The notes beneath the pieces were generated by a model. That model saw nothing but the letters and a program-made list of their open reading frames with translations. It ran no database searches and was not told the origin of the DNA. Shown in pieces: positions 30,021 through 64,000 of a stretch of DNA of 64,000 bases. Made by a program: the position numbers and the translations under genes. The stretch's first letter is position 1. The number at the start of each line of letters is the position of its first letter. The stretch is from IMG/VR virus record IMGVR_UViG_3300005077_000004, positions 1 to 64,000 of that record. One strand, given 5' to 3'. Origin of the DNA: a virus.

Positions 30021-30021
30021 T

Positions 30022-43271: not shown

Positions 43272-44231
43272 TTAAAGACCTAATTGTTTCTTAGCATCGT
43301 TTTTGAGATTGGATATCATACTATGGAATGATGATACAAAACCTTTTTGGTCTGTCTTATATTCTCCTTTCCAAGCATGATAATGAAGACTTTTGTTTTC
43401 TTGAAACGAGATATCCCCATTTAACATAGTATAACCTTTATACTTCCCCGTACTTAACATTTCATAATCATCAAACAATTGTATTTTGAGAGATGTTTTC
43501 AGATGCGGAAACCTCTCAAAAACACTTCCAATCCAGTACACATCACCCCGAGGAAGGTTCCAATAATATTGACATAGGTGTGGTTTATAAATCGTATTGT
43601 ACAATTCCATATTGAATGTGACCAACCCAACGTTCATTTGCTTCTTCATTTCGTTGTAAAGGATAGTCCAACAAAATGAATCAGGATTACGAGAAACATT
43701 GTTCATAATATACTGACAACACGGTTGAATTGATATTGTATCCGTGTCTACGATAATTCCATATTTTGTCGTAACATAATCCAAACCATGATACTTGGTT
43801 CTGTAACCTATACCCAAATTGAATGGATGGGAATTAACGGAATGAAAATGTCGAATCAAATTTACATATTGTGATTCGAGATAGAATAGCTTAGTATAAT
43901 CAGATTCGAAAATCTCTTTATCAGATAAACCAAACAATCTCATAATCAAAATTGGATAATTCTCTTCCCGCTCAGGTTTCTCCCTTTCTAACGAAAAAGG
44001 AAGCGGAGAATCCCACCCAATAACTATCTTAGGAATTACTGGTTCCGTAATGATAACGCTAGAAGCCATCAATATAGCATGAATTTGAAGATCCAAAAAC
44101 CCATGACCTTTTCCTCGCATGAACCCGCAAGTCCAAGTCAGATCTGAGTGAATGGGTTTATTTGTGATCTTTGAGGCTAAGGACCATAACTCGAAAGCTT
44201 CCGAAGCAAACTCGTCATATATTAATCCCAT
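43272..44231 (-). CDS. hypothetical protein, possible glycosyltransferase (start uncertain: 44231 or 44288)
   Basis: IIVDTDTISI DxD-like motif. The assignment rests mainly on location in the glycan island. Confidence 0.35.
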   Translation of the reverse strand: MGLIYDEFASEAFELWSLASKITNKPIHSDLTWTCGFMRGKGHGFLDLQIHAILMASSVIITEPVIPKIVIGWDSPLPFSLEREKPEREENYPILIMRLFGLSDKEIFESDYTKLFYLESQYVNLIRHFHSVNSHPFNLGIGYRTKYHGLDYVTTKYGIIVDTDTISIQPCCQYIMNNVSRNPDSFCWTILYNEMKKQMNVGLVTFNMELYNTIYKPHLCQYYWNLPRGDVYWIGSVFERFPHLKTSLKIQLFDDYEMLSTGKYKGYTMLNGDISFQENKSLHYHAWKGEYKTDQKGFVSSFHSMISNLKNDAKKQLGL

Positions 44232-44907
44232 AATTTTCCTTTGTGTGCGAACAAAAAAACTTTTTAAACTCGTTTTTAGGGTTTTCAATAATGTCTTTAT
44301 TAATTCTCTTCGAAAAAATATTCAAATCTTCGTGACTAGGAGAATGAATTTCACAATGATAGTAACGAAGTCGATCCCACATTTGAAATTCAGAAAAGAC
44401 TCTATACTCAGATCCCTCAATGTCAATCTTAATTATATCAACATTTAATATCTGATTTAGATCAAAAAAACTATCCAACGTCATCGCTTGAACCGGAATG
44501 TTTCCATCTGTTTCGGACACACGAGATGCTCCTGAATTTCTCCTAATCGTTCGATCCATCAAATACCTATATCCACTTCCAATACACAAGCGGAACGAAT
44601 GAATGGTGTTTTGTAATTCATACAACTCAATATTCTTTTGAAGACACTCGAAAACACTTGGATGTGGTTCGATTGAATAAATTCTTAGATTTTCGCTTTT
44701 CAGAAGAAGAGACAACAAAATAGAAACAACACCAATGTTTGCTCCTAAATCGATAACCGTAGAAATACCTATTCTACGTTTTTGAACAAAATCGATAATC
44801 TGTCTGGACGTTCTTAGTCCCGTTCGAAGACAAACATCTCGTTCGCATTGTTGAGGAACGAAGAAAGTATAAAATTGATCGTTGAGTTTGATTTCTTTTT
44901 TATGCAT
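44215..44907 (-). CDS. FkbM-family SAM-dependent methyltransferase
   Basis: VIDLGANIGVVS and IKIDIEGSEYRVF signatures. Confidence 0.7.
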   Translation of the reverse strand: MHKKEIKLNDQFYTFFVPQQCERDVCLRTGLRTSRQIIDFVQKRRIGISTVIDLGANIGVVSILLSLLLKSENLRIYSIEPHPSVFECLQKNIELYELQNTIHSFRLCIGSGYRYLMDRTIRRNSGASRVSETDGNIPVQAMTLDSFFDLNQILNVDIIKIDIEGSEYRVFSEFQMWDRLRYYHCEIHSPSHEDLNIFSKRINKDIIENPKNEFKKFFCSHTKENYGINI

Positions 44908-46391
44908 TAGTAAAGTCTCAATATTGGTTTATTATCCAAATATCTCTGATAAGCCTCCGACCAAGATTTCGATATGACCGCTTCGTTTGTTCTCTCTTGA
45001 CAATCGGTAGGGCTATGACCGCAATACTTACAGAGAACCTTTATCTGCTCGAAGAGTGACCGGTAATCGACCAGATTAAGTTTCTTTATACCAATATCGA
45101 ATCCGAAAACTCTTGCCAACGAAGCACCAGCACCACAAGGAAAATATCCATAACGAGAGAGACCGATTCCACATCTCCATGGAATATCACAGAAGGGAGT
45201 TATTAGATGTCCAAAATCGCACGGTGCTTTGTTATAGGAAGTAAATACCAAAGACTCTTTCTTGTCCTTAGATGAATTTCTAATCTTTACCCATTTCGGA
45301 ATTCGATTGATTACTTCATTGGTAAGCTTTCCAACCCCATTTGTTGAAAAGCGAATTCGACATTCCGAAACAACATCTTTGTATTCTTTTATGATTTCAA
45401 AGATAGAATCGATCTCAGGGTGCAATGTAGGTTCCCCACCAATAAGATCGATGCGAACCCACTTTCGATTCTCTGACAAAGATTCATCAACGAATTGATG
45501 GATCTGTTGAACCGACATATGTTCTTGAGAACGGGCATTCCCACATGATCTATCACAGTTCTTACATCTCATATTACAGTCGGTTGTCAATTCGAGTTGA
45601 ACTTTGTTTAACAGATTTTGTTTGTACCCATACCCATGTTTACGAGATAAATAAATTTGCTTCTTGGTGTTAAGGAATGATCCGTCGAATGCAAAAATCG
45701 GAGTAACTGATTGAATGAGTCTTCGATATTTCGATCCGATACACACACCCTTCTTTTTCAGATTAGAGGATGCCCAAGTGCGGTGGGGAAGACGCTCTGC
45801 CATATACCAAAGAAAGGTATCGTGACTAGGTATCGGAAGTCGTTGACCGGCAAGATACGCGCACTCGTCAACAAAGTCTTTGTTATGAAGACACATAAAC
45901 GATATTATACGCTTGCATCCTATAGCTGGTTTATTCCAATCGAAATCAGGTCTATACGGTTCACCAGAAAGATTCTTCAAATCAGACCACTCGTTCAATT
46001 CTCTTATCCACGTTGCCGGTTTAGTATACCCCCAGCGATGCGAAAATAAGTCATATTTGAAATCATCTTCAGAGAAAACATTTTCTTCAGAAATGAAATG
46101 ACATTCTGAGTCCAATTTAACCCAATGAGGGGTCTCGACATATTTTCCAGTTCCAAGAACAAATGCCGAGAATATCTGTTCTCTCTTTGGTATATCCGCA
46201 TTCATATTCCAATCAATCACTCTAACATTTTTTCCAAGATCTTTGAAATGCTTTTCTGGTCTTTTGTATCCATGTGTAAACAGAAGTATCGGGGAAATCC
46301 GAAACTGTTCTTTCAATCTCCAGGTTGGAAGACAAAGACGAAGTTTCTTTTCGTAGTCAGGTGTGGTTGCAGTGACTATAGTAAATTCCAT
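44907..46391 (-). CDS. fusion protein: N-terminal GT-A-like domain + C-terminal radical SAM domain with an extra Cys cluster (SPASM-like)
   Basis: N-terminus: FTIVTATTPDY...KLDSECHF. C-terminus: LELTTDCNMRCKNCDRSCG (CX3CX2C), IDLIGGEPTLHPE, then CDF...CDIPWRCG...FPCGAG...CKYCGHSPTDC. Confidence 0.7.
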   Translation of the reverse strand: MEFTIVTATTPDYEKKLRLCLPTWRLKEQFRISPILLFTHGYKRPEKHFKDLGKNVRVIDWNMNADIPKREQIFSAFVLGTGKYVETPHWVKLDSECHFISEENVFSEDDFKYDLFSHRWGYTKPATWIRELNEWSDLKNLSGEPYRPDFDWNKPAIGCKRIISFMCLHNKDFVDECAYLAGQRLPIPSHDTFLWYMAERLPHRTWASSNLKKKGVCIGSKYRRLIQSVTPIFAFDGSFLNTKKQIYLSRKHGYGYKQNLLNKVQLELTTDCNMRCKNCDRSCGNARSQEHMSVQQIHQFVDESLSENRKWVRIDLIGGEPTLHPEIDSIFEIIKEYKDVVSECRIRFSTNGVGKLTNEVINRIPKWVKIRNSSKDKKESLVFTSYNKAPCDFGHLITPFCDIPWRCGIGLSRYGYFPCGAGASLARVFGFDIGIKKLNLVDYRSLFEQIKVLCKYCGHSPTDCQERTNEAVISKSWSEAYQRYLDNKPILRLY

Positions 46392-46398
46392 CTATCCA

Positions 46399-47145
46399 CT
46401 AATTTAATCCCATCTTGGATGCGGTATCGAAAAAGAATCTCTTGGACCTCGAACCTCCATAATGAATAGCCATCCCAGGTATTCGGACTTTTCTTGTTTG
46501 GATATATCTAACCCCAAGAACCGAAGCACGATTTTCGTAGAATCGTAATACGTTCAAAAGAATCGGTTGATCAATGTATTTTCTCTGTGTCCTCAAGATC
46601 AAATTCGGTTTAACCTCTGATATGAAAAAATCAGATAGTTTCGGAGTGTAGGCTACGAATCCCGCACACATCTGATCATTCGAATCGAGACAAGCTAAGG
46701 GAGTTGTTTCTAGAGGGTCTCGACGTCCGCTCGAAATCAAAATACGATTCCCGATTTCTTTTCCGATATACTCAAACAATTCGTTTCCTCTAGTAAAAAT
46801 TATGTCACTATCAGCCCAACATACAACGTTATAGTTGAAATAGTCTTTATATTCGGGGAGAATGTATTTGGTGTACCGACCGTAAAATCTATCATTACCT
46901 CCGGATATTGTAAACATCGAATGACTTTTTGGAAGAATCCATTGCTTAACTCTCGGATTCTTCGTTAGGATATTTGTTTTTTGATCACGTATCACTAAAC
47001 AATCAACATCACAACCAGTTAAACTATTCATCATAATACTCGTCCACTTGTTATATCGAAGTCCGGTTTTCGGATCCCTAATTAAACCAGTAGATTCATC
47101 TGCTGTATTTCCAAAACATGATGTGTAAACGAGGATACGTTTCAT
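46399..47145 (-). CDS. putative glycosyltransferase (DUF616-like N-terminus, DxD)
   Basis: ILVYTSCFGN and VVCWADSDIIF. Confidence 0.4.
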   Translation of the reverse strand: MKRILVYTSCFGNTADESTGLIRDPKTGLRYNKWTSIMMNSLTGCDVDCLVIRDQKTNILTKNPRVKQWILPKSHSMFTISGGNDRFYGRYTKYILPEYKDYFNYNVVCWADSDIIFTRGNELFEYIGKEIGNRILISSGRRDPLETTPLACLDSNDQMCAGFVAYTPKLSDFFISEVKPNLILRTQRKYIDQPILLNVLRFYENRASVLGVRYIQTRKVRIPGMAIHYGGSRSKRFFFDTASKMGLN

Positions 47146-48032
47146 GATTTAGTTTTGACTATATCGAAAATATTGTTCTTATGTTTTCTATACATCTTAT
47201 CATCGTAATCATTCTCCAGGACATTCATCCCCACTTTATCAAAGACCCCCTGGATTAGACACTGTTCGAAATAATACAACCATATAAGGGAGTGATGGAG
47301 CGGAAACCCTTCATCTGAGAACCGACAATGTTTTTTTCCGTGGAAATGAACTACTACCGGATAAGCGGGATCATCGATCTTATCATCGTACTTACATGAA
47401 CAGTTGAATGCGGACTCTAGAAGTTTATGTGGATATTTCGGAAGGAGAAGCTGCATACACGTTTCGTCAGCTATAAACGATTCTCTCCCCACCACAGCAC
47501 GATCATACCACACCTTCATTATCTGAGAATCTTTGCGGAAGCCGAAGCATCCACAATTAATTGCGCTTCCGTAGTCGAGAGCAGGACCAACAAGATTTGG
47601 ATGATGTTGATTCCAATACTTAATTCTTTTCGAAACAACCCCACCCTGCGTTCCCCAATTAGCGAAGTGAGCGATACTGAATTCGTGTTCCTTTGCTGTA
47701 GCTATGAACTCAATTATTCGTGGAGACAAAACAACGGTATCAGAATCCAATGAGACTGAGACGTCGAACGGAGTAACAGTATGATATTTCGTTCGTTCTA
47801 GAAACACAAGATTCTTTCCAGGAGGAACGTCAAGATCTAAAACTTGAATACCGCAATCAAAATGCTCTGCTATTCTTTCGCAAGTTTTGATAGCAAACGT
47901 CTGAACATTAACATCTCGCTTCGGATAATACAATAGAATATCTCCGTCATATACTTGACGAAGAGAAAACATCGACACCACCATTCGAATTAAACAAGAC
48001 ATTCCTGAGTTGTAGTAAACGATCCCGTTCAT
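47142..48032 (-). CDS. putative GT8-like glycosyltransferase
   Basis: GIVYYNSG...SLRQ, SLDSDTVVL (DxD), AINCGCFGFRKD. Confidence 0.5.
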   Translation of the reverse strand: MNGIVYYNSGMSCLIRMVVSMFSLRQVYDGDILLYYPKRDVNVQTFAIKTCERIAEHFDCGIQVLDLDVPPGKNLVFLERTKYHTVTPFDVSVSLDSDTVVLSPRIIEFIATAKEHEFSIAHFANWGTQGGVVSKRIKYWNQHHPNLVGPALDYGSAINCGCFGFRKDSQIMKVWYDRAVVGRESFIADETCMQLLLPKYPHKLLESAFNCSCKYDDKIDDPAYPVVVHFHGKKHCRFSDEGFPLHHSLIWLYYFEQCLIQGVFDKVGMNVLENDYDDKMYRKHKNNIFDIVKTKS

Positions 48033-49180
48033 TTCTTCTTTCCCTTCTTCTCCTTGTCCTCTCTATCATAGAGACCTTCTGTTCTTTCATTCTCAGTATC
48101 AGGCATGAGAGCGGTCGCTGCTTCTATTGCTTCATTGAAAGCTACCTTTGGAAATACCTCTAGGTGTGAATTCCGATTGCAATTGAAAATGTGATAATGA
48201 TATTTTTCAAATATAGGTTTCAGTTCCTCAAATCTCTTGGTTAACATCTTATAGGTTGAATTGTTTCCATTGACAGATCCTTCAGATCTATCCTGTTCGA
48301 AGTTGTAGTTTTGTTTGCCATATTCCATCTTGAAGTCGCAACCGAGAAGGAAAACATTTCTTACTCCCAAATAAAATAAAATGCGGAGTGCGGCAAGAAG
48401 TACACTTCTCGATCCAAATTCTCTGCTCCCACACTTCGGACAGACCTTGATATCAATTCCGTCCTTTTTCTTATCCGGTCTCCAATAACCACAATGGCAG
48501 AGATTACTATGGTTCCCCCAATTGATGGTATCTTCAAAAAGGAACTGGCTGGCAACAAAATGTTCGTTCCGTCGATAATAGAAAACACTTGGAGCATCAC
48601 CAACAACCATGCTCATTTCTTTCCATGCTTCATTATCGAAGATATTCTTCTCTGCCGCAGATGTTGGGGCAAATTTGATTATGGTGGGATCTAACCAAAT
48701 TGATTTGATGAAGTGAGCGGGTTTATCAACACAAACCCAAAGATTCGGACGAAATGTTTTGGCAGAGTTATTCACACCCATCGTTAGAATTCCGGGTGTG
48801 CGAAGGGCATCTAAATTAAGCTCAAGTAAGCTCGGACCACCGAGAATTAGAAATGCTGCCGCCCCTCGGTACATATCACCTATAAAAACACTATGCCCAT
48901 CTCTGGTAAACAAGAGAGGAGGAGTTTGAATATAGTGACCTATACGAAAACCTTCATATCGATCCCGACCGTCCCACAAAAGACCTCGGTCGTTCTTATC
49001 CTCCACGGTTGATCTACTTCTTGGAGGAGTCTGAACCTTCTCGGTAGGTGATCTCTTTTCAGGTTCAACCTCTTCTGGTTCCTCGTTTTTGGTTATTTCT
49101 TTCTCAACATTTTGAACGATTGCTTGTTCTTTTATTCTCTTCCATTCATCCAGCGTCCACTTTTTGACGCTTTCGGACAT
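48029..49180 (-). CDS. DUF115/Maf-like (MptE-like fold) putative glycosyltransferase with an inserted Zn ribbon
   Basis: AAFLILGGPSL...ILTMGVNN...VCVDKP...YLGVRNVFLLGCDF. Insert CHCGYW...VCPKCGS. Confidence 0.5.
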   Translation of the reverse strand: MSESVKKWTLDEWKRIKEQAIVQNVEKEITKNEEPEEVEPEKRSPTEKVQTPPRSRSTVEDKNDRGLLWDGRDRYEGFRIGHYIQTPPLLFTRDGHSVFIGDMYRGAAAFLILGGPSLLELNLDALRTPGILTMGVNNSAKTFRPNLWVCVDKPAHFIKSIWLDPTIIKFAPTSAAEKNIFDNEAWKEMSMVVGDAPSVFYYRRNEHFVASQFLFEDTINWGNHSNLCHCGYWRPDKKKDGIDIKVCPKCGSREFGSRSVLLAALRILFYLGVRNVFLLGCDFKMEYGKQNYNFEQDRSEGSVNGNNSTYKMLTKRFEELKPIFEKYHYHIFNCNRNSHLEVFPKVAFNEAIEAATALMPDTENERTEGLYDREDKEKKGKKK

Positions 49181-49192
49181 TCTTGACTCCTA

Positions 49193-50326: not shown

Positions 50327-50336
50327 TGTTTCTCCC

Positions 50337-50897: not shown

Positions 50898-50940
50898 GAT
50901 TTTCTCCTTTTGTTAAATTGTACCAGATTTTGATTCAGAG

Positions 50941-52251: not shown

Positions 52252-52255
52252 AAGT

Positions 52256-52980: not shown

Positions 52981-52992
52981 TTTTACGCTCTC

Positions 52993-54275: not shown

Positions 54276-54345
54276 TATATGTGAAGGATTATAGCATACT
54301 ACAGAAAAATTGTCAAGTTATTTTTTGTGATTCTGGAATGGTTTT

Positions 54346-54936: not shown

Positions 54937-55593
54937 CTACAATTCTAATGTGTAATTGAATGCTTTCAAATCTCTACCCCAATGAGTCTCTACCAAACGC
55001 TTCGCTCCCGGATTCTGTCTGTAATGCTCCCGCCAATCTACGCCGCGAGATGCTTGTGATGTATTCTGTTTCAATAGAGTGATTGGTTTCACACCAATAC
55101 ACTCGCAAACAGTATCGAAATCAGATTGAAGATTTTCAAACCTACCAACAAAGTCTACCATCACCTTTCCCTTCGCATTACAAATGAAGGAATGCTGGGA
55201 TCGGATAGGAGAACATTCATCGTACCTTCGTCCTACATCGGTTCGATAATATGAAACAACCTCTTCGAAATTATCCATCGTCATAATTCCATTTGCTGGC
55301 ATTTGACTTCTTTTAACCTTGACCCAAAAGAAAAATGAGGATACCACCCACGAAAACGGATTCCGAACGAACGTGAACTTAAAACATTTATTCCACAGAT
55401 CTGATCCGATAACTCTCTTAATGTGTCGTGCTGGCATATGCTTATCATATAAACGCCAATCACCCTTATTCAACTTCGCGGGTTCAAAGTGCGTCATATC
55501 GGGAATAGTTAATAGTGCTGCTCGAATTGAACCTGTTGCGTTCCTTCCACCAGAAACGTAAACGTATTTGTGACTCTTAGAGACCATTGACAT
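54937..55593 (-). CDS. sulfotransferase (Sulfotransfer_2-like)
   Basis: YVYVSGGRNATGSIR (degenerate 5'-PSB) and FTFVRNPFSWVVS (3'-PB). Start at the internal MSMVSK. Confidence 0.55.
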   Translation of the reverse strand: MSMVSKSHKYVYVSGGRNATGSIRAALLTIPDMTHFEPAKLNKGDWRLYDKHMPARHIKRVIGSDLWNKCFKFTFVRNPFSWVVSSFFFWVKVKRSQMPANGIMTMDNFEEVVSYYRTDVGRRYDECSPIRSQHSFICNAKGKVMVDFVGRFENLQSDFDTVCECIGVKPITLLKQNTSQASRGVDWREHYRQNPGAKRLVETHWGRDLKAFNYTLEL

Positions 55594-56539
55594 TTGTTTT
55601 CTCCACCTGTATTCCAACCTCTGATAAATCAATCTTGGTTACAAGATCCCGTCCTTCTTGATATTTGGCAGCGGTTCCATACTTTCCGTTGTTATGATAA
55701 ACTCTTAACCAATCTCTAGGGTTTCGAGCTATACCTTTATATTTTGGGAAGACTGCAATGCTTTCGTTTTCTAAGATGTATTGGTTGATCTTCTCCGGAT
55801 TTTCTTTCAAGATGCCAACATTAGCATATCTCTCTGCTTTCATTTTTGTGTATGGATCAGAACGATACATTTCCGTTCTCTGGCAAAGCTCTGAGATTAT
55901 GTCGGAGTGCCATCGAATATGTCTGATGGGAATTATTTTCTGAAGAGGTTCAAACTCAACCATATCCCTAATCTTAATATTGTGATAGGATCCTCGTTCA
56001 CGCTTGACGATAAACTTTGAAAGCGGAACCTTTTCTATTTTCACACCCAACAAATCTTGCGAAAGAAGAGTTGGAATCGAAAACTTCTCTATCAGGTTAT
56101 CGCCATCTTCAACCACATCAAAAACACCAGCAGACGAAACCATATCCACTAAGAAAGAAACAACATAATCAACCTTCTTTTCGATTAACGAATCGATGAA
56201 ATCTCTCATAGAAAGATTTTTTGGAGGAACAAAAAATTCGTCCGAATCAACAGTCAGAACCCAATCCTCACTCGTCAATTGATTCCCGATATGATTGTTG
56301 ATTAATCGAATATATGCGTTTCTTTCGTTCGAATGATAAGTTCCTATCCAAGGGTAAAAGAAGAAGTTGACCTGGGATTGCGTTAAGAAATCACAAAAAG
56401 TTTGAATATCCGAATCGGATCCATTGAGAATGAGGTAGAAAAAATCAACACCCAATGCTTTATAATATTCAATAAACTTCTGAGCAAAAAGCTTTACGCG
56501 ATTTTGAACGTTAACTACAGATATCAAACTCAGATTCAT
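55577..56539 (-). CDS. GT-A glycosyltransferase (GT2/GT92-like)
   Basis: ISVVNVQN...YYKALGVD and WVLTVDSDEFF (DxD). Confidence 0.55.
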   Translation of the reverse strand: MNLSLISVVNVQNRVKLFAQKFIEYYKALGVDFFYLILNGSDSDIQTFCDFLTQSQVNFFFYPWIGTYHSNERNAYIRLINNHIGNQLTSEDWVLTVDSDEFFVPPKNLSMRDFIDSLIEKKVDYVVSFLVDMVSSAGVFDVVEDGDNLIEKFSIPTLLSQDLLGVKIEKVPLSKFIVKRERGSYHNIKIRDMVEFEPLQKIIPIRHIRWHSDIISELCQRTEMYRSDPYTKMKAERYANVGILKENPEKINQYILENESIAVFPKYKGIARNPRDWLRVYHNNGKYGTAAKYQEGRDLVTKIDLSEVGIQVEKTNVNGL

Positions 56540-56547
56540 ATCATCCC

Positions 56548-57159
56548 CTAGAATAAATTATCTGTATTTCTCTTATATCGTTCAGAGAATACTATTTCGT
56601 TCTGAGGAATCCCAACAAAATTGTCAAACATCTTGAGAGCAATAAATTCCAATAGCTTTGAATTTCGACGATTAACAATCTGTTTCAGACAGAGATGATA
56701 GCTGTTCATCGAACAAAACGCTTCCGGGAAATTCTCTTTGTAGTGGTAAGGGCAATGTCCAATCCAATAACCGTCTAGAGGAATTGAATGCACCATCACT
56801 CCTGTAGATTTCAACATCTTGTCGATATTACGAAATGCCTCTTTTTGATTTTCCACATGCTCGGTTGTTCCGTAATTCGTCACCATGTCAAACTGCGAGA
56901 CAAATTTCTTTGGGAGGGATTTGCAAAGGTCCAGCTTGACTGCACCGTCTAGAGCATTCAAATCAAAACTCACATGTTTCGCCCCCTTTGATTTGAACCA
57001 TTCTTTGGCAACGCATTTCTTGTATTCCTTTCCGTTCGGTCCAACAGCAAGAATCTTTTGGTTTCCAAGTTCTGCAACAGATAATCCGGATAAGGAATCT
57101 CGTTCCAGAAAAGAAACCGCTTTATCAATCAATTTAAGATTGTTTTGGTTAATGGACAT
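56548..57159 (-). CDS. class I SAM-dependent methyltransferase
   Basis: VAELGNQ (motif I variant) and FDMVTNYGTTEHV. Start MSINQNN preceded by GGAG. Confidence 0.5.
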   Translation of the reverse strand: MSINQNNLKLIDKAVSFLERDSLSGLSVAELGNQKILAVGPNGKEYKKCVAKEWFKSKGAKHVSFDLNALDGAVKLDLCKSLPKKFVSQFDMVTNYGTTEHVENQKEAFRNIDKMLKSTGVMVHSIPLDGYWIGHCPYHYKENFPEAFCSMNSYHLCLKQIVNRRNSKLLEFIALKMFDNFVGIPQNEIVFSERYKRNTDNLF

Positions 57160-57733
57160 TGTAATTGAGTCTCCTAAAATCTTCTTCATACAGTTTAGCA
57201 ACAATCTTTTTCATTTCCGGATCATACGATTTCGTCCACGGTTTGTGGTGAGTCTTTTTCCTCGATGGTAGATTTATCATTGGGAACGAATGTTTTCTGA
57301 GAAATTTTTTCCAATCATGATCAAGCGATTCAAATCGGATTAAATCAGTATACAATCTTTTCTCTCCGTTGAATAGCCAGCGGCAAGCCGGATGGAAAAA
57401 CTGATTGCGTTCGTATATCCGATGTATATCCATACAAAAATCTCGAAATGATGGATAATCAAAAATGTACTTTAAACTCGAATTCTTTTTGTCTTGTTTA
57501 CATTGAATGATATAGTTGTATGCGCTAAAGAGTCTACCGAAAGGGTTACGAACAGATGCTACAATAATAGGATTCTCTGGAAGCTTTCTATAATATTCAT
57601 TTATTATGGCAGTCGTTTTTGCATGACCATGCCGATTCATTTTAATTCTCTTCTTATCTCGTAAGGTTAACAAACCAGTTTCGATTGATGTGGAAGCTGT
57701 CTTTGGAATCCGAATCTGTATCACTCGTTGCAT
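57149..57733 (-). CDS. sulfotransferase (Sulfotransfer_2-like)
   Basis: IRIPKTASTSIE (5'-PSB) and VASVRNPFGRLFSAY (3'-PB). Confidence 0.65.
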   Translation of the reverse strand: MQRVIQIRIPKTASTSIETGLLTLRDKKRIKMNRHGHAKTTAIINEYYRKLPENPIIVASVRNPFGRLFSAYNYIIQCKQDKKNSSLKYIFDYPSFRDFCMDIHRIYERNQFFHPACRWLFNGEKRLYTDLIRFESLDHDWKKFLRKHSFPMINLPSRKKTHHKPWTKSYDPEMKKIVAKLYEEDFRRLNYNVH

Positions 57734-57842
57734 AACTAAGTCCTCGAACGACAAACAATAACAGAACGAATTCTGTTGAGACGAAGAGTTGCTTCGATTT
57801 CATAATCCTTAGAGATTGACGTTATGAGTTGTTTATATTCAT

Positions 57843-58343
57843 CTACGCTTGCCCAAAAATATCTCCCTTCCTCTGATTCAACCCCTTCTCTCCATGACTT
57901 GCATACCAACCCAAAAATAATCTACCTTCTGGTTTTAAACTTTCCATCCACACATAAACAGCTAGTTGTGGGTTATATGAATGATCGAGAGAGTTTGAAT
58001 AAACAAAATCAAAAGAAAATTCCCATTCGGGTTTGAGAATATGAAAATCATGTTTTTCGATTTTTTCAGTAGCAGCGGGGTCTGGATATAAATCGGTTCC
58101 GATAATTCGAACATCGGGAAGATGTTTTTTAAACTCGGTCATCTCCCATCCCGTCCTAACACCGTGACATATTCCAGATGAACACCCTATGATTTTTTTC
58201 TTGATAAACTTGGAGATCGTCTTAATCTCGTTTGCTTTTTCGATTGTTGGTCGTATAAATTTCGTTTGAGTAAGTTTCCCACGAGTGGTTTTGATTTGCG
58301 TGTTCTTATAGCTTTCGTAGGATTGAAACCTAAGCTGTCTCAT
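57843..58343 (-). CDS. putative SAM-dependent methyltransferase
   Basis: ICHGVRTGWE, IIGTDLYP and FDFVYSNSLDHSYNP layout. Confidence 0.45.
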   Translation of the reverse strand: MRQLRFQSYESYKNTQIKTTRGKLTQTKFIRPTIEKANEIKTISKFIKKKIIGCSSGICHGVRTGWEMTEFKKHLPDVRIIGTDLYPDPAATEKIEKHDFHILKPEWEFSFDFVYSNSLDHSYNPQLAVYVWMESLKPEGRLFLGWYASHGEKGLNQRKGDIFGQA

Positions 58344-59153
58344 TTATTGATCTTTCTGTAAAATCGTTCGGGTAACTTTCGTAATATAGCGACCGATAGA
58401 CTCCGGAGAAAAGTAATCTCTCCAGCAAACTTTCATCTTTTCGTGAATCTCAAGAAGCTTTTCATCGGTGATCGAATCGAGGATCCCGCCTAATTCATCC
58501 CAATTATTTACATAGAACGCTGGACAATTTTTAAAAGCTCTTGCTTTCATCGGATGTGGGCAAGCAACGATTGCACTCGCACACTTTACCGCTTCTGAAA
58601 ATCTAAGACACTCACACCGCACCATCCCCTTTGGACTCAAAACAATCTTAGCTTCTTGCATATACTGAGAATACTTTTTGATGTTCATTCCACCCTTAGT
58701 ACCCATGAACCTCTGTCCAGAATCAAAAATAAAACAGTTCTTTGAAGGGTTTCTATCTCTCCATCTCAACGCATTGTCCCACATGTCTTTTCTTTTTGGA
58801 GTTCGACCGATGAATACAACATCGTATTTTCTTTCGAGTATCGGAATCGAATCATCTCCGGTAAACCCACCAACATAAGGAAGAGGAATATGGTAGACGT
58901 TTCCAATGGAGTTATCATTCAAATGATGTTTAAAAACCAACCCCACTTTGTCTTTGTAGACTGGAGGAACCCCTCTCTCGTCGCCTGCGGTCAAAATCGC
59001 GATAACGTTTTTCCCATACTTCGGAAGCTCTTTGTAATTGAACGAAGCAATGACGGTCTTGTCTTTGAAAACCTCTTCATCAAAATATTTGTACATAATG
59101 TTGAAGTATTCGTGTTCAATATAATGATCCGGAAGCAAATTTATCAGTTCCAT
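58344..59153 (-). CDS. GT-B-type glycosyltransferase (exostosin/GT1 C-terminal-like)
   Basis: YDVVFIGR...IVLSPKGMVRCECLRFSEAVKCASAIV resembles the donor-binding half of GT-B enzymes. Confidence 0.5.
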   Translation of the reverse strand: MELINLLPDHYIEHEYFNIMYKYFDEEVFKDKTVIASFNYKELPKYGKNVIAILTAGDERGVPPVYKDKVGLVFKHHLNDNSIGNVYHIPLPYVGGFTGDDSIPILERKYDVVFIGRTPKRKDMWDNALRWRDRNPSKNCFIFDSGQRFMGTKGGMNIKKYSQYMQEAKIVLSPKGMVRCECLRFSEAVKCASAIVACPHPMKARAFKNCPAFYVNNWDELGGILDSITDEKLLEIHEKMKVCWRDYFSPESIGRYITKVTRTILQKDQ

Positions 59154-59162
59154 TTTCTCTCC

Positions 59163-59903
59163 CTACTTATGCTTAATATAGGTTCCAGGTTCCCACTTCT
59201 TGGTTCGGAATGGATTATTGAGAGGGTATCCAGAAAAGACTTTGCAACCCATCTCTTCCACACAAAGGTTGAATACGGGCATGTTGGCATTAAATTTCTC
59301 TGGTATCCGGCTGAACTTATCTATCATGCGCTCAAACAACTCAAGCATCTTTTCTCTCGACCCACCAACAATTCCGGCATTGTATATCGTTTCTCCAGGT
59401 GTATACTTGTTTTTAATGAGGGGTAGCTTCATCTCACGACACTTTCGCACCATCCACTTCGAACTATATTTGCTCATTTTTTCATCACCGATAAACAAAT
59501 CGTATTCCGGTTTTTGCTCTATCAATTGAAATGGATTTCCAAGAAGAATCACATCAAAGAGATCTGTACAAAAAACATGTGAAACCTCTGGATGTTTCAA
59601 AAGATATTTTCTGTAAGCGTAAAATCGTTCATCATTATAAGATGGTCGGTGAGATTTTCCCCATTCACAGAAAGAAATACATGTGTTTGAATGGTCTGTA
59701 ATAAATTTTTGAGAACACTCATTATGAAATATAACAGATCCAAACTCCGGTTCGAGTCTGGAATACTTTAGATTCGTTTCTACCCACCCACTAATCAAAG
59801 GATAGTTGTCGGGTTTGGCTCCACCTTTACCATTGTTTGAACTATCGTGTTGATGGAATCCGATATTCTTGGTGAAGTAGGGTGCGAAGATTAGTTTAGC
59901 CAA
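59163..59903 (-). CDS. possible nucleotide-diphospho-sugar transferase
   Basis: VFCTDLFDVILL and IYNAGIVGGSREKMLELF patterns. Weak call. Confidence 0.35.
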   Translation of the reverse strand: MAKLIFAPYFTKNIGFHQHDSSNNGKGGAKPDNYPLISGWVETNLKYSRLEPEFGSVIFHNECSQKFITDHSNTCISFCEWGKSHRPSYNDERFYAYRKYLLKHPEVSHVFCTDLFDVILLGNPFQLIEQKPEYDLFIGDEKMSKYSSKWMVRKCREMKLPLIKNKYTPGETIYNAGIVGGSREKMLELFERMIDKFSRIPEKFNANMPVFNLCVEEMGCKVFSGYPLNNPFRTKKWEPGTYIKHK

Positions 59904-60565
59904 TTAATTTTTCCTTGCATAATAGCTTTTCGAACTACAACATCGTTATGTTTTCGATTGTTAAAGTTTCTCTGAGGATGATTAATATGCATGAGAGGAA
60001 ACATATTCGAAACAACAAACGGAATCTTTCCATAAATCTTTGCTCTTCTAGCCCAATCGTCATCTTCTCTACTCCAGTTCACACAATTTTCATTAAACCC
60101 TCCAGTGTCATACCAATATTTTGACTGCAAAGAATTCCAACAACCATTGGACGCTTCTTTTGGAAACTTCATCATGAAATCCCAATCCATCAAATTATAT
60201 TCTTCTGGAAGTTTTGGAAAACCAGCAACCTTTTCAATGGTAATTCGTCGATGATTAACGTGAAAACAATGTCGTTCACTCATAGAAATTTCATAAGATT
60301 CGTCTATAATTTTTGGAGGGACAATCAAATCGATATCTGTTTGAATTAAAACCTCATAACCCATATTAACAAGTTTTTTGATACCCTTATTCAGAATTTT
60401 TGATTTGTTGAAATGGTTAATTTTTTGTGTTTTATCTTTTGATCTCAAAATATGGATATCAAAACTCACAGATGGTTTTGATTGCTCGATACATCGAATA
60501 AATCTATCCACAATATTCTGAGGAATAAATTGAGCAACAACCATAATTCCTACATTTTTAGACAT
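59891..60565 (-). CDS. GT-A glycosyltransferase, tandem paralog A (beta4GalT/GT7C-like C-terminal motif)
   Basis: VLIQTDIDLIVPP, CWNSL...WYDTGGFNENCVNWSREDDDWARRAK, MHINHPQR. Confidence 0.55.
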   Translation of the reverse strand: MSKNVGIMVVAQFIPQNIVDRFIRCIEQSKPSVSFDIHILRSKDKTQKINHFNKSKILNKGIKKLVNMGYEVLIQTDIDLIVPPKIIDESYEISMSERHCFHVNHRRITIEKVAGFPKLPEEYNLMDWDFMMKFPKEASNGCWNSLQSKYWYDTGGFNENCVNWSREDDDWARRAKIYGKIPFVVSNMFPLMHINHPQRNFNNRKHNDVVVRKAIMQGKINWLN

Positions 60566-60736
60566 AATAATCTCTCTTTCGAAGATTATCTTCTTTCTAT
60601 AAGGGTTGAAGATTTTTCAGAGACCAACACTTCCTAAACTCTGGATCATCTTCGGTAGTAAACAAAAATAAAGATGAAGATCTTGGAAATAGCGAATATG
60701 GTTTTTCTGTTTTACATTCGCAGCACAGTTTTGTTT

Positions 60737-61441
60737 CTACTGATTGCATGGCGGTTCCTCCAGGTTTGATGTTTCCGGAAGAGGTTCTTTGAGAACGATA
60801 ACTTTTTTCAACCAATCAGTTTTATCGGAATAGAGTCGGCTCACTTCGAAATTTTCTTTTGATCGTTTCTTTTGTCGTCTAGGATGATTGACATGAACAA
60901 GAGCAAACGACCTATCATTTATCCAACGGATACCCTTCCGTCTTGCTCGATTGTAGAATTCGGTGTCTTCGGATCCCCACGCATACATCTCTTCGTTAAA
61001 TCCTCCGGTTTTCTCCCACGTTTGAGAACACATCCCATTCCAACAACCAGAACAGAATGTTGAAGAATAATTTAGCCATTGATGCCATGCGAAATCTTTA
61101 TACTTCTTCCCCTTGACTTCAGAAGCTTCAACATATCTCAAAAAATGATGAAAACAATTATTAGGTTGCTTCATCACCGCTTCAAACGTTCTATCTAGAA
61201 GTCCACGAGGAACTAACAAATCTATATCTGTTTGAATGATGACCTTGTACCGAGGAATCGCGGAACGAAGACATTGATTGATAATTCTCGTCTTATAGAA
61301 TTTCTCGTCTGCCCCACCGCTAACAATCACATCGTAGGAATACTTAGATCCTGAAATTTTGATAGTTGATCGGAATCTCGAAATAATTTTCGGAGAAATC
61401 CCTTGTGCTGCTGCGATGATGCATATATCTTTTTTCTTCAT
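60737..61441 (-). CDS. GT-A glycosyltransferase, tandem paralog B
   Basis: VIIQTDIDLLVPR, GCWNGM...WEKTGGFNEEMYAWGSEDTEFYNRARRKG, VHVNHPRR. Confidence 0.55.
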   Translation of the reverse strand: MKKKDICIIAAAQGISPKIISRFRSTIKISGSKYSYDVIVSGGADEKFYKTRIINQCLRSAIPRYKVIIQTDIDLLVPRGLLDRTFEAVMKQPNNCFHHFLRYVEASEVKGKKYKDFAWHQWLNYSSTFCSGCWNGMCSQTWEKTGGFNEEMYAWGSEDTEFYNRARRKGIRWINDRSFALVHVNHPRRQKKRSKENFEVSRLYSDKTDWLKKVIVLKEPLPETSNLEEPPCNQ

Positions 61442-61442
61442 A

Positions 61443-62186
61443 TTAAGTTCCGTATCTATAGATGTTGGATTTTGTTGGTCCTATTTCTTTATTCCTCTTC
61501 CGCAACCAGTTCGTGTCTGCCGGAAACTTTCTTGCCTCTGATAAATTCTTTTTCCCTTGTTTTGTTATCGCTCGTCTCGGATGATTTATATGAAGAAGCG
61601 GGTATTGATTGCTAATATACCAATGCATCCCATTCTTCTTAGACCTCAAATAAAACTCAGAATCGGGACCACCTAATCGTGTAATTGCTTCGCAGAAACC
61701 GCCAAACTCGTTCCACAAAAAGTTTCTCAACCCATTCCAACTCCCGGATGCATAATTCACGGTTCTGGAAGAAAATGATTTCCATGGGAGATTCTTGTAT
61801 TTCTTCCCATCTACTTCTTTTGGTTCCGCATACCGAAACGTACTATGGAAGCAACCTGGGACTCTTGAACAATGAGAATACGTTGCTCTTATCAAATTTG
61901 GAGGTATAAACATATCGATATCTGTTTGGACTATAACCTCGTACTTCTTAATGTTTTCTCGAATGATATCGTTCAAAATCGTAGTTTTGGAAAACGTCTT
62001 CTCTGGATTTCGATGCCTTCCAAGAATAACATCTACAGGAAATCCACTTCTAGAGCTATCGATACCCCATAAAAATCTTTTGACAATCAATGGATCCACA
62101 TTATCAGCAACAGCGATAATCGCTATTTTACCGATAGAGGTTCCATTTTCCGTATTCCCGGATAACTTGGGTTTGATATTCCCCAT
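61443..62186 (-). CDS. GT-A glycosyltransferase, tandem paralog C
   Basis: VIVQTDIDMFIPP, GSWNGL...WNEFGGFCEAITRLGGPDSEFYLRSKKNG, LHINHPRR. Confidence 0.55.
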   Translation of the reverse strand: MGNIKPKLSGNTENGTSIGKIAIIAVADNVDPLIVKRFLWGIDSSRSGFPVDVILGRHRNPEKTFSKTTILNDIIRENIKKYEVIVQTDIDMFIPPNLIRATYSHCSRVPGCFHSTFRYAEPKEVDGKKYKNLPWKSFSSRTVNYASGSWNGLRNFLWNEFGGFCEAITRLGGPDSEFYLRSKKNGMHWYISNQYPLLHINHPRRAITKQGKKNLSEARKFPADTNWLRKRNKEIGPTKSNIYRYGT

Positions 62187-62832
62187 GCTTTTTATCCCTA
62201 CTCTTTCGGTAAATCGATGTTGTTGTTAGTGCTGTTGGGCTGTCGTTCAACCAGAACGCTTTTCGAGGAATCAAGACAAACGGAATCCTCTGCTTCTGCC
62301 CCTCCAAAGCAAACCAAATGTCTGCCATATTCTTTTCTTTGAACGTCTCTCTTGAGAGTTTGATCGTGCTTGTGTGGAATGCCGCTGTTCCTGTTCCGAT
62401 TACATGTACGCTTCTAGGAGCATCTAATCTTGATCTGTAGTTGGTCAGATTTCTTGCTCGATAGTAGTTCCACATATTCTTCAGATTGAGAACACATCCA
62501 TGAACCCCAACCACGACCTTTTGTTTATACTGATCTATCAGACCAACCATTCTTTGAGTGTAGTCTGGAGGGTAGATAATATCATCATCTACAGTGAAGT
62601 AATAACCGTCTACCTTGTCTACAAAATGAAACTTTCCGATATCTCCACAATGACCGTGATCTTTACCCATAATCACCTTAATTTTCGGATGCTCAAGAAT
62701 CTTTGGAACATCTTCATACTCGTTCAAATATACGAATAGCTTCGTGCATTGCGGGACGATATTAGGAATGACCTCAAGAAGACACTTCTTCCTGGGTGGA
62801 TACGTTGCCATTCCGTAGTATATTTTTGCCAT
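62128..62832 (-). CDS. GT-A glycosyltransferase
   Basis: IYYGMATYPPR... and FTVDDDIIYPPDY (DxD). Confidence 0.5.
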   Translation of the reverse strand: MAKIYYGMATYPPRKKCLLEVIPNIVPQCTKLFVYLNEYEDVPKILEHPKIKVIMGKDHGHCGDIGKFHFVDKVDGYYFTVDDDIIYPPDYTQRMVGLIDQYKQKVVVGVHGCVLNLKNMWNYYRARNLTNYRSRLDAPRSVHVIGTGTAAFHTSTIKLSRETFKEKNMADIWFALEGQKQRIPFVLIPRKAFWLNDSPTALTTTSIYRKSRDKKHGEYQTQVIREYGKWNLYR

Positions 62833-63761
62833 TATCTTTTCAATCCATATCTAGAATCTGTAAGCGGCTTAGTTAACAAAGGATTTCTTTCTCGTTCTCC
62901 GGGATTCATCTTAGAGTCATGCTCGTCGTGAATCACCAATGATTGAGTTGTTAAATAGAGATTGTATCCCGCAGCATGTAATCGTGTGCTAATATCTCTA
63001 CCCACACCACTCGAAGAGAACGGGTTCACAAATCTAGCCTCATGTTGCTTGGAAATCCTGAATCGAAGAGCAGCGAAGAAGTTGATGTTCACAAAAAAAT
63101 CCATATCTACCCATTGGGAAAGATAAAGACTATTTCCACTATACGAGACGAGTTTAGGTTTAACTCCAGTCCAAACTATCTTCCCCTCTCGGCTGTCAAG
63201 ACGAAAGTTCAAACAGATCTTTTTTGGATCTCTGATCGATTCCCACAAATTTACACAACGAGAAAAGAAACCGTCAACCAATCGTCCGTCATCATCTAAT
63301 TTGATATAGTAGTCATAGTTCATATTATTTTTGATTTCGGATATTGCGTAGTTACAAAGTCGCCAGTATCCCTTCTTTCCGTGATTTTTTTCCATCTTGT
63401 GATATTCGATATTCAATTTTCCCGAAAACGATTCTATCATTTTATCATAACTCTTTGGGCTTGCATCATCAATAATCATCAGCTTTAGCGTGAAGCTCTC
63501 TTTATTTTTATAGATATCATTGAGAAGATTTTTGAGATCGGATGGACGATCATACGTATTGATCCAAACCAGAATACTTCTCTTTGGATCAGACTTTGAA
63601 AACACCTTCTCCGGGAGAAGGAGGATTGGTGGTTGCGACGGAGGAGGTTTCGGTCTACCCAACCTTACACGCTCCACTTCTAACGCTCTAGCATATCGAG
63701 AATTGATATGAACATTAACGTCTTTATCTTTGTTTAAACTTCTAATTCTTCTTCGACGCAT
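62832..63761 (-). CDS. GT2-family glycosyltransferase
   Basis: ILVWINTYDRPSDLKNLL, LMIIDDASP, IKLDDDG. Start placed at MRRRRIR. Confidence 0.6.
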   Translation of the reverse strand: MRRRRIRSLNKDKDVNVHINSRYARALEVERVRLGRPKPPPSQPPILLLPEKVFSKSDPKRSILVWINTYDRPSDLKNLLNDIYKNKESFTLKLMIIDDASPKSYDKMIESFSGKLNIEYHKMEKNHGKKGYWRLCNYAISEIKNNMNYDYYIKLDDDGRLVDGFFSRCVNLWESIRDPKKICLNFRLDSREGKIVWTGVKPKLVSYSGNSLYLSQWVDMDFFVNINFFAALRFRISKQHEARFVNPFSSSGVGRDISTRLHAAGYNLYLTTQSLVIHDEHDSKMNPGERERNPLLTKPLTDSRYGLKR

Positions 63762-64000
63762 GATCTTTAACCTTATACTTTCGAGACGCTTGAGTATGCA
63801 ACACCACAGGATCACCATCCAAAGGTTTGATTTTTGGTGCTAACGTTCTCAATGAATCATCAAACACAAAACAATATGAATACGGAAGCGGTTTGACTTT
63901 TATTTTGTGCCTCTCGTAACCACCAGCGGAAATCAATTCCCGCAAACAATGTTGATCCCCGAAACGAAAAACCGAACTTCGACAACCAAGATCCCAATCT
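63742..64000 (-). CDS. hypothetical protein, 5'-truncated by the window edge
   Basis: I checked by hand that the reading frame stays open to nt 64000. The M at 63945 in the ORF track is a TTG inside a longer frame. Confidence 0.4.
   Translation of the reverse strand, partial: DWDLGCRSSVFRFGDQHCLRELISAGGYERHKIKVKPLPYSYCFVFDDSLRTLAPKIKPLDGDPVVLHTQASRKYKVKDHASKKN

Follow-up and report, generated by a model that had tools for sequence, protein, structure and literature searches.

A locus of probable glycan assembly and tailoring genes, built around a widespread four-gene core, in an uncultured phage

We found that the interval 43272-64000 of a 64,000-nt stretch of the IMG/VR record IMGVR_UViG_3300005077_000004 (the whole stretch hereafter called the window) holds a phage locus of about 20 genes that very probably serve to build a sugar chain and to methylate and sulfate it. 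The glycan genes fall into two blocks, Block A at 43.3-49.2 kb and Block B, a variable arm, from 54.3 kb to beyond 64 kb, and the four-gene core of Block A was found in more than 100 metagenomic phage lineages. The explanation that we prefer, with a rough probability of 45%, is that the two blocks form one set of glycan enzymes whose product would be attached to the virion; the choice of virion proteins as acceptor, taken by itself, is tentative and falls somewhat short of even odds.

To take inventory of the locus, the 60 open reading frames (ORFs) of the window were scanned against Pfam at curated cut-offs, as well as against PHROG and NCBIfam, and the window proteins were compared with each other by blastp. 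Every long ORF between 42,042 and 64,000 lies on the minus strand, as a first-pass annotation made from the letters and the ORF list had stated, and the G+C content of the interval (37-41%) is like that of the remainder of the window. The same annotation had described many glycosyltransferases (GTs) of several folds, and we count seven well-supported, five probable and two motif-only GTs (43272-44288 and 46399-47145). Its single continuous island of ~21 kb gave way to two blocks, because 49193-54275 is occupied by a DNA ligase, a poly(ADP-ribose) polymerase (PARP), an Rnl2-type RNA ligase and small ORFs, a nucleic-acid repair/PARP stretch of ~5 kb (49.2-54.3 kb). Relatives syntenic with the window (L003/L004, L005 and L006; three IMG/VR contigs and one ENA contig) keep the locus at 40-78% protein identity, and the window ORFs are therefore real genes. 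Block A comprises the following features.

48029..49180, minus strand: core gene 1, DUF115/MptE-like (Maf/GT42 sialyltransferase-like) protein with a zinc-ribbon insert; phrog_4603 'sialyltransferase', 8e-8
47142..48032, minus strand: core gene 2, GT8/GT24-like retaining GT-A glycosyltransferase, by AlphaFold2 (AF2) model and Foldseek
44907..46391, minus strand: core gene 3, GT-A domain (residues ~1-250) fused to a twitch/SPASM-type radical S-adenosylmethionine (SAM) domain
43272..44231, minus strand: core gene 4, conserved ~312-aa partner of the radical-SAM fusion; likely start M20 of ORF 43272-44288
44215..44907, minus strand: FkbM-family SAM methyltransferase; Pfam Methyltransf_21, 4.3e-16, 59.9 bits
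46399..47145, minus strand: ORF with a DSD motif only; no Pfam, PHROG or NCBIfam match, and no homologue at any related locus compared

Conservation of the core extends far beyond the syntenic relatives. Full-length homologues of the fusion encoded at 44907-46391 number more than 160, share 37-52% identity with it and come from contigs that reach 264 kb, and the MptE-like gene followed by the fusion gene recurs in L006, L008/L009, L010, L011, L012, L013 and L014. In these lineages the GT8-like gene stands between the two or is fused to the MptE-like gene, the latter giving a single protein of 540-570 aa in several of them, and a homologue of the 312-aa partner lies directly downstream of the fusion in L006, L008 and L010 (tblastn, 31-48% identity). 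Core proteins of the window and L008 are 36-46% identical, compared with 28% for the portal. By tblastn against 50,697 GenBank phage records, no match was found for the fusion and Maf-like genes of the core, nor for the GT7C-type and RXYLT1-like genes of Block B.

Assignment of the GT8-like enzyme at 47142-48032, a label already given in the first pass, was borne out by its predicted structure and invariant motifs. Its model (predicted local distance difference test, pLDDT, 94.7; AF2 with 13 homologues) was matched by Foldseek to the catalytic domain of UGGT (GT24, 7e-11) and to glycogenin (GT8, 7e-8), and also to WbbM, GlyE and XXYLT1. D96-S-D98 and H229xHGKKH are invariant across the 13 homologues on this GT-A fold, and the L006 orthologue has a weak Glyco_transf_8 match.

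The GT/radical-SAM fusion, likewise recognized from the first, carries a Pfam Radical_SAM match at residues 267-353 as well as Fer4_12, and both domains are visible in its model (pLDDT 94.5; AF2 with 61 homologues). Foldseek placed the N-terminal domain with the GT-A enzymes K4CP, GlyE, WrtF, B3GNT2 and B3GalT5, and residues ~255-494 best with BtrN (4m7t, 6.7e-6) and SpeY (1.1e-5), whose substrates are sugar-like cyclitols. Because of this likeness in fold, the radical-SAM domain would be of the sugar-oxidising type. The cysteines of the CxxxCxxC motif (C272, C276 and C279) are invariant, as are C401, C407, C419, C454 and C457, and this C-terminal set could bind an auxiliary cluster. Sequence likeness to radical-SAM enzymes is confined to the cluster-binding region, and NCBIfam returned generic radical-SAM matches alone, far below cut-offs. 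The PDB matches cover one domain each, and no full-length structural equivalent was found in BFVD (maximum TMq 0.33). In L003:16584-17825, a GT-A domain 44% identical to that of 44907-46391 is joined to a Methyltransf_23 domain in place of the radical-SAM domain, and because of this swap the GT-A domain would seem to serve for docking or transfer, as a module whose tailoring partners can be exchanged.

The label DUF115/Maf-like for 48029-49180 remains probable: the phrog_4603 match and the PF01973 matches of its relatives favor it, and the window protein by itself has no Pfam match. The family is very large (at E<1e-3, 1464 clusters at 50% identity are represented); 20 of 36 members match PF01973, which we take to be the family of Maf flagellin glycosyltransferases (best 2e-6, below the 34.6-bit cut-off wherever a score was shown), and some members are fused to GT8, GT2, GT9 or Methyltransf_24 domains. 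Against the PDB, the family profile matched the GT42 enzymes Cst-I/II weakly (E~0.1), along the segment LG...L.G.DF....NYAF, and otherwise gave low-complexity huntingtin matches alone. Together these likenesses make the protein a probable cytidine monophosphate (CMP)-sugar transferase. Neither genes for the synthesis of CMP-linked pseudaminic (Pse), legionaminic (Leg), neuraminic (Neu) or ketodeoxyoctonic (Kdo) acid nor a flagellin acceptor were found in the window or related loci. The idea that the MptE-like protein is a pyrophosphokinase acting on hydroxymethyl-pyrimidine DNA was set aside, because its relatives include fusions with GT and methyltransferase domains and because GT42 was the sole enzyme family matched in the PDB.

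For the 312-aa partner, no match was found in Pfam, PHROG or NCBIfam. Its family has an invariant DxD and YH(A/G)WK and is possibly GT8-like. An hhalign comparison of this family with the GT8-like family was non-significant (13% probability), though the motifs align. The 97% probability returned by hhalign for the fusion family against the GT8-like family is a probable artefact of the longest alignment row (P0013, 484 aa), because the matched columns fall past the end of the window protein. Single-sequence phmmer searches of the PDB were uninformative for the unannotated ORFs.

Block B, the variable arm, contributes further GTs along with sulfo- and methyltransferases.

54346..54927, minus strand: FkbM-family methyltransferase; Pfam Methyltransf_21, 7.7e-11, 42.8 bits
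54937..55593 (ORF to 55632), minus strand: sulfotransferase 1 (Sulfotransfer_2); Pfam 3.7e-12, 47.4 bits against a cut-off of 22
55577..56539, minus strand: GT-A glycosyltransferase, Glyco_tranf_2_4/GT92-like; Pfam 9.4e-11 and 9.6e-8
56548..57189 (ORF to 57204), minus strand: class I SAM methyltransferase; Methyltransf_11, 23.5 bits against 21.2; orthologues in L003 and L006
57149..57733 (ORF to 57754), minus strand: sulfotransferase 2 (Sulfotransfer_2); Pfam 1.8e-10, 41.8 bits against a cut-off of 22
57843..58343, minus strand: possible class I methyltransferase, weak; Methyltransf_11/12 at E~0.006, sub-cut-off, with an L003 orthologue that is weak too
58344..59153, minus strand: putative RXYLT1_C-like (exostosin-type) glycosyltransferase; Pfam 2.5e-6, 27.5 bits against 27
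59163..59903, minus strand: putative glycosyltransferase; phrog_1579 glycosyltransferase, 3.5e-15; no Pfam match
59891..60565, minus strand: GT-A paralogue 1 of a GT7C-type trio; blastp 1.7e-35 to 60737-61441; Glyco_transf_7C 18.9 bits, sub-threshold
60597..60815, minus strand: probable HNH homing endonuclease remnant; C-terminal CWSLKNLQPL; no Pfam match
60737..61441, minus strand: GT-A glycosyltransferase, Glyco_transf_7C-type; Pfam 2e-9, 37.4 bits against a cut-off of 23
61443..62186, minus strand: GT-A paralogue 2 of the GT7C-type trio; blastp 1.4e-51 to 60737-61441
62128..62832, minus strand: possible GT2-like glycosyltransferase; Glycos_transf_2 at E 1.4e-3, 19.1 bits, sub-threshold
62832..63818, minus strand: GT2 glycosyltransferase; Glycos_transf_2, 26.7 bits against a cut-off of 23.3
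63742..64000, minus strand: 3' end of a gene at the window edge, GT77-type nucleotide-diphospho-sugar transferase; 64% identical to L004:9321-9929

The tailoring genes named in the first pass largely stood. Both FkbM methyltransferases and both sulfotransferases of the interval were recovered with Pfam; one of the two class I methyltransferases (56548-57204) passed its cut-off and the other (57843-58343) was weak; and the GT-B/exostosin-like enzyme (58344-59153) was borderline, half a bit above its cut-off, with an orthologue in L003/L004 that is 78% identical. Elsewhere in the window, a methyltransferase is supported at 2-811 (Pfam Methyltransf_24), and the sulfotransferase that had been proposed at 10852-11625 has no profile support, showing PRSG... 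and RDPF...S motifs alone. As to the remaining GTs, orthologues of 62128-62832 in L004 and L005 are 72% identical, and L004:9321-9929 matches Pfam Nucleotid_trans with 27 bits against a cut-off of 22. No genes for nucleotide-sugar synthesis were found by Pfam among the 60 window ORFs, as had been noted from the letters.

Comparison with relatives showed that the arm passes the window edge, as first thought, and that its content shifts. In L004/L005 it continues for ~2 kb beyond the point that matches 64,000, with the Nucleotid_trans (GT77-type) enzyme and then two GT2-like genes, followed by a 3D-domain protein, a class II ribonucleotide reductase (RNR), a second MptE-like gene and UvsW; at the head of the arm stands a sigma-70 promoter (L004:6783). 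L003 carries a polysaccharide pyruvyl transferase (PS_pyruv_trans, 1e-10) in its Block B, one more FkbM gene and an HNH gene that is intact, and is without the GT92-like gene and 46399-47145. That HNH-like ORF (L003:13141-13809, 222 aa, CWSLDNLQPL) sits at a different position from the window remnant at 60597-60815, which suggests homing-endonuclease traffic within the locus. Block B is specific to this clade. Separately, in the distant phage L014 three genes come after the core (L014:11407-13995), for a GFO_IDH_MocA oxidoreductase, a hexapeptide acetyltransferase and a DegT aminotransferase. They resemble the WbpB/D/E trio, which makes diacetamido sugars, and some lineages thus carry sugar-nucleotide tailoring genes beside the core.

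Both sulfotransferases are predicted to transfer sulfate from 3'-phosphoadenosine-5'-phosphosulfate (PAPS) to carbohydrate. The enzyme at 57149-57733 has a canonical PKTASTS 5'-phosphosulfate-binding (5'-PSB) motif and RNPxxRxxS as its 3'-phosphate-binding (3'-PB) motif; that at 54937-55593 has an intact 3'-PB motif (RNP...S) and the variant GGRNATGS at the 5'-PSB. RNP...S is invariant in six sequences (both enzymes and their orthologues), and the joint profile matches PAPS sulfotransferases alone in the PDB. By tblastn, 57149-57733 has no homologue in GenBank phages, and the sole one of 54937-55593 is a 'sulfotransferase' of Stenotrophomonas phage DLP6, an isolated gene. Sulfotransferases of other families, their function given as 'unclear', are on record for OM43 phage genomes and S-SRM01 (PMC10580990). 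A sulfated glycan made by a phage, which the first-pass annotation had held to be new, would therefore be new as regards the product and not as regards sulfotransferase genes in phages.

From the enzyme classes and folds, their conservation, the gene contexts and the promoters, we infer donors, the chemistry and order of the steps, and an acceptor as follows. Soluble cytoplasmic enzymes would build and decorate an oligosaccharide from host nucleotide sugars, SAM and PAPS. The core would act through its Maf/GT42-like putative CMP-sugar transferase, its GT8-like retaining transferase and the GT-A-radical-SAM fusion with the 312-aa partner, the BtrN/SpeY-like domain turning a sugar hydroxyl into a ketone; in the window, Block A has an FkbM methyltransferase in addition. 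Block B (~9 GTs, two PAPS sulfotransferases and two to three methyltransferases) would extend the glycan and make it methylated and anionic, and the methylated, sulfated glycan predicted in the first pass remains a reasonable product. The acceptor would be one or more surface proteins of the phage virion (neck, fibre or capsid decoration), which would give the particle a glycan coat like those on the fibrils of giant viruses and the capsids of mycobacteriophages. Synthesis is placed in the cytoplasm because none of the island enzymes shows a convincing transmembrane segment, and the window and related loci lack a flippase, polymerase, ligase or polyprenyl-phosphate GT. A more specific version of this proposal is unlikely as a whole: the core would be a widespread undescribed virion-glycosylation system that installs an acidic (ulosonic or nonulosonic) glycan with a keto- or further-modified sugar, formed on the acceptor by the radical-SAM enzyme joined to its own GT, which this clade extends, methylates and sulfates into the first sulfated glycan of a phage particle.

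Among the acceptors initially left open (virion, host envelope or DNA), gene context favors virion proteins. In L008/L009 the core and, after it, GT2, FkbM, Methyltransf_24 and cupin genes are closely spaced and co-directional inside the structural module, between a T4 neck protein and the Portal_T4/Peptidase_S77/T4_CASP genes; there, TATAAATA late motifs precede the structural genes and the stretch has no sigma-70 promoter. Virion or fibre genes are the usual neighbours of the core, and the proteins encoded beside it include a collagen-repeat protein and a 903-aa protein (sub-threshold BclA_C match) immediately upstream in L008, a collagen protein and a 1694-aa protein downstream in L013, Laminin_G_3 proteins in L012 and L014, and three proteins of 628-712 aa in L011. 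In the window itself the core abuts neck genes, towards which it runs convergently on the strand of the early-type promoters. UGGT, glycogenin, GlyE and XXYLT1, the closest structural matches to the GT8-like enzyme, act on proteins or glycoproteins, and PF01973 is the family of the Maf enzymes, which glycosylate flagellin.

Several observations weigh against a virion acceptor. The promoters and neighbours of the window locus that enter into the first of them are listed here.

43236..43263, minus strand: sigma-70-type promoter (TTGACA-N16-TATAAT) that heads 42762-43208, where the locus ends downstream; equivalent in L003 at 18300
50917..50944, minus strand: sigma-70-type promoter with extended -10, heading 50337-50897, the ligase and the core block; kept in L003 at 11313
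54288..54316, minus strand: perfect sigma-70 consensus promoter (12/12 with TG) at the downstream boundary of the variable arm, preceding 53997-54275 and Rnl2; kept in L003, L004 and L006
49193..50326, minus strand: ATP-dependent DNA ligase; Pfam DNA_ligase_A_M, 2.7e-21, and DNA_ligase_OB_2; non-glycan
50941..52251, minus strand: poly(ADP-ribose) polymerase, eukaryote-type; Pfam WGR, PARP_reg and PARP; non-glycan
52993..54024, minus strand: T4 Rnl2-type RNA ligase; Pfam RNA_ligase, 1.3e-24, and T4_Rnl2_C, 3.1e-20; non-glycan

All eight strict sigma-70-type (early-like) promoters of the window share the strand of the locus, and three of them (54316, 50944 and 43263) are within the locus or at its edge and are kept in relatives. 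The locus is co-transcribed with the genes for DNA ligase, Rnl2 and PARP, and RNR and UvsW are encoded upstream of it in relatives. This early-type strand and neighbourhood are unlike the placement of virion genes and fit early expression. Among the window proteins there is no Ser/Thr-rich tract or collagen-repeat acceptor candidate. The Maf-like protein lacks a Pfam match of its own, as said above, and two of the counted GTs are recognized from motifs. Pyruvyl transferases, FkbM and Sulfotransfer_2 enzymes are typical of the tailoring of bacterial surface polysaccharides, and published readings of comparable cyanophage clusters favor modification of the host envelope (PMC1079782, PMC7824862, PMC12801897).

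Remodelling of the host envelope is the rival that survives best and a strong one, though we hold it to be somewhat unlikely. In this case the enzymes would act at the cytoplasmic face on lipid-linked or nascent lipopolysaccharide (LPS), capsule or exopolysaccharide (EPS), relying on the host for priming, flipping and export, and the altered surface would block superinfection or change recognition. FkbM and Sulfotransfer_2 enzymes are common in O-antigen and EPS tailoring, and L003 adds PS_pyruv_trans; the sigma-70 early-type promoters and early-region neighbourhood of the window clade also favor it. So do the precedents, which are the 24 putative LPS genes of the T4-like cyanophage P-SSM2 (PMC1079782), the 13 GTs from at least seven families in S-SCSM2R (PMC12801897) and the clusters that Iyer et al. 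described in jumbo phages, whose GTs represent at least eight families (PMC7824862). Lack of transmembrane segments is compatible with this rival, because GTs that use undecaprenyl-linked acceptors are usually soluble or peripheral. However, neither the window nor any of 11 related loci was seen to encode a priming GT, flippase, polymerase, ligase or exporter, and the L008 core stands in a late structural operon, where remodelling shortly before lysis makes little sense. Across phages that probably differ in host, the core is also better conserved than the portal, which is unexpected for enzymes that have to suit the surface glycans of a particular host, and tblastn with five island genes (both sulfotransferases, GT7C, RXYLT1-like and Maf-like) found no cyanophage homologue.

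Another soluble target is improbable. The product could be a glycosylated, sulfated small molecule of the aminocyclitol/aminoglycoside type, or the enzymes could glycosylate host flagellin or pilin and so shut down motility or receptor display. BtrN and SpeY, the enzymes closest to the radical-SAM domain, act in butirosin and spectinomycin biosynthesis, respectively, PF01973 enzymes glycosylate flagellins, and the WbpB/D/E-like amino-sugar trio stands beside the core in L014. Secondary-metabolite clusters have moreover been predicted in cyanophages by Iyer et al. (PMC7824862; PMC2938197). Yet the Pfam scans revealed no scaffold-forming enzymes (inosamine synthase, non-ribosomal peptide synthetase or polyketide synthase), no flagellin-like gene or CMP-nonulosonate pathway lies nearby, and the recurrent adjacency of the core to virion and fibre genes would go unexplained.

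DNA hypermodification, in which an oligosaccharide on hydroxymethylated pyrimidines would shield the genome from restriction and CRISPR, is very improbable: the T4-like lineage, the early-type promoters, the DNA-metabolism neighbours (the ligase of the window, and the class II RNR and UvsW of its relatives) and the phage GT clusters that put mono- to trisaccharides on 5-hydroxymethylcytosine (5hmC) with GTs resembling LPS and teichoic-acid enzymes (bioRxiv 10.1101/2023.12.21.572611) speak for it, but no dCMP/dUMP hydroxymethylase, C5-methyltransferase, TET/JBP or 5-HMUDK was found in the 60 window ORFs (64 kb of the 191.8-kb contig), 12-14 GTs with sulfo- and pyruvyl-transferases far exceed any known DNA glycan, and the late-operon core of L008 is incompatible with replication-coupled modification.

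The virus is an uncultured, distant T4-like phage of a bacterium, and the phage origin first assigned to the locus is upheld by the T4-type portal of the window (32708-34375; phrog_213, 1e-77) and by a neck gp13 match on the L006 orthologue. The portal is only ~26% identical to those of cultured T4-like phages; genes beside it match the T4 neck gp13 and DUF5661 proteins annotated in the syntenic L006, and DUF5661 is also found by Pfam on an 827-aa protein of the window. With megablast, 40 kb of the window gave no match to the 50,697 GenBank phage records. That the host is bacterial is shown by the consensus sigma-70 promoters and AGGAG ribosome-binding sites. The 'moraphage' lineage (PMC12619734) was considered and is probably not this one, as its predicted hosts are Bacteroidota and the window has strong Shine-Dalgarno sites.

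All eight strict promoters (TTGAC[AT]-N16-18-TA[TAC]AAT) are on the minus strand (e.g. 3744, 10415, 13456, 18889, 21298, 43263, 50944 and 54316). The T4 late promoter TATAAATA is without enrichment in the window. A CTAAATA[AT] motif, rarer than expected window-wide (7 found versus 15 expected), occurs just upstream of the plus-strand genes 10463, 25693 and 34455 and the minus-strand gene 24515, and may be a variant late promoter, as a lead only.

Other parts of the window hold features of separate interest. In T4 the major capsid gene sits after the portal, protease and scaffold genes, and at this place (36284-38767, plus strand) the window encodes the 827-aa protein, highly Lys/Glu-rich with its DUF5661 segment; it had no PHROG, Pfam capsid or PDB match, and a major capsid protein was not recognized among the window genes. 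Ahead of the portal, four genes in tandem (25995-31308, plus strand) may be multiple tailspikes or depolymerases: the first three share an N-terminal region of ~340 aa, the fourth resembles the C-terminal part of the third, and one of the four has a right-handed beta-helix domain. L008 has a Pel9A-like beta-helix protein at the equivalent position. At 4219-7034 (plus strand), a 670-aa fusion of DUF5662 with a zeta-toxin/AAA_33 kinase is followed by a caspase-family (Peptidase_C14) protein, and in L013 DUF5662 and a zeta-toxin-like kinase likewise lie directly upstream of the glycan core. An IMP dehydrogenase (IMPDH)/GMP-reductase family gene adjoins a NUMOD3-containing, homing-endonuclease-like ORF on the minus strand (9395-10366 and 8414-9331).

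The ligase, PARP and Rnl2 genes that separate the two blocks are kept as a trio in L003 and L006 under conserved sigma-70 promoters, and may form a nick-sensing repair or anti-defence module. PARP orthologues occur in L003 (~64-67% identity) and L006 (57%). A PARP homologue is present in 16 GenBank phage records, with full-length homologues (32-35% identity) in a few phages: XacN1, Xoo-sp13, Klebsiella FBKp34, Stenotrophomonas CM1 and RAS14. By eye, the residues of the H-Y-E triad are present (WHGT, GAYFSD and NNEMIVY).

If the glycan does coat the virion, sugar shields, so far associated with mycobacteriophages and giant viruses, would be common in large environmental phages, with bearing on host recognition, on evasion of grazing or immunity, and on sticking to mucus or particles. 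If instead the host envelope is the target, the 'LPS cluster' idea from cyanophages would reach another phage lineage with new chemistry. In either case, the core is a clonable four-gene target that includes a GT-radical-SAM architecture without a characterized example, and the locus offers a route to testing whether phages make sulfated glycans.

Comparison with known systems places the locus among several precedents, and the first-pass view that it goes far beyond them was overstated, because large GT-rich clusters have already been published for phages and Megavirinae. The nearest in scale are the clusters of cyanophages P-SSM2, S-SCSM1 and S-SCSM2R, which are likewise T4-like phages with a dozen or more GTs of many families in accessory regions that vary between related phages. 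Their clusters hold nucleoside diphosphate (NDP)-sugar epimerases, kinases, nucleotidyltransferases and Kds enzymes, whereas the window locus holds none of these and instead carries Sulfotransfer_2, FkbM, the GT-A-radical-SAM fusion and the Maf-like core. Sulfotransferases go unmentioned in PMC7824862 and PMC12801897, and tblastn with six island genes (the five named above and the radical-SAM fusion) found no homologue in cyanophage records.

In Megavirinae, clade-specific glycogene clusters of 6-33 genes, made up of GTs, methyl- and pyruvyl-transferases and genes of sulfate metabolism, serve to glycosylate the fibrils, with virion surface proteins as the acceptors (PMC9614988). They share with our locus the mixture of single- and multi-domain GTs and tailoring enzymes, sometimes interspersed with DNA/RNA-metabolism genes. 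Many Pfam families found here (GT92, GT7C, RXYLT1, GT77 and Sulfotransfer_2) are otherwise mainly eukaryotic or giant-viral, and the structural neighbours in BFVD are mostly GTs of giant viruses. These viruses differ in that they infect eukaryotes, make their own rare sugar nucleotides and encode sulfate-activation enzymes in place of the Sulfotransfer_2 pair, and their clusters have no detectable orthology to the window locus.

Phage GTs of mycobacteriophages modify capsid and tail-tube subunits and so shield the particle (PMC12619734), the same logic of cytoplasmic virion-protein glycosylation as we propose here. Those phages are actinobacteriophage siphoviruses with few GT genes (two in Maravista, PMC11256854) and no reported sulfo-, methyl- or radical-SAM tailoring, and the window locus lies outside the late structural operon. 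Sugar clusters acting on phage DNA (the alpha- and beta-GTs of T4, and those dependent on MT/5mYOX) also use GTs borrowed from LPS and teichoic-acid enzymes and are expressed early, but need a 5hmC-generating enzyme beside one to three GTs; none was found in the window, where tailoring is far larger. BtrN and SpeY, the best structural matches to the fusion, have the same CxxxCxxC and conserved C-terminal cysteines, and differ from it in that the phage-encoded enzyme is joined to a GT-A domain.

Against this background, the complete absence of sugar-nucleotide genes from a GT-rich locus, as seen across the 60 window ORFs, appears to be new. The core with its GT-A-radical-SAM fusion, abundant in metagenomes and undetected in sequenced phage genomes, likewise appears new, as does its pairing with two carbohydrate-type sulfotransferases and several methyltransferases.

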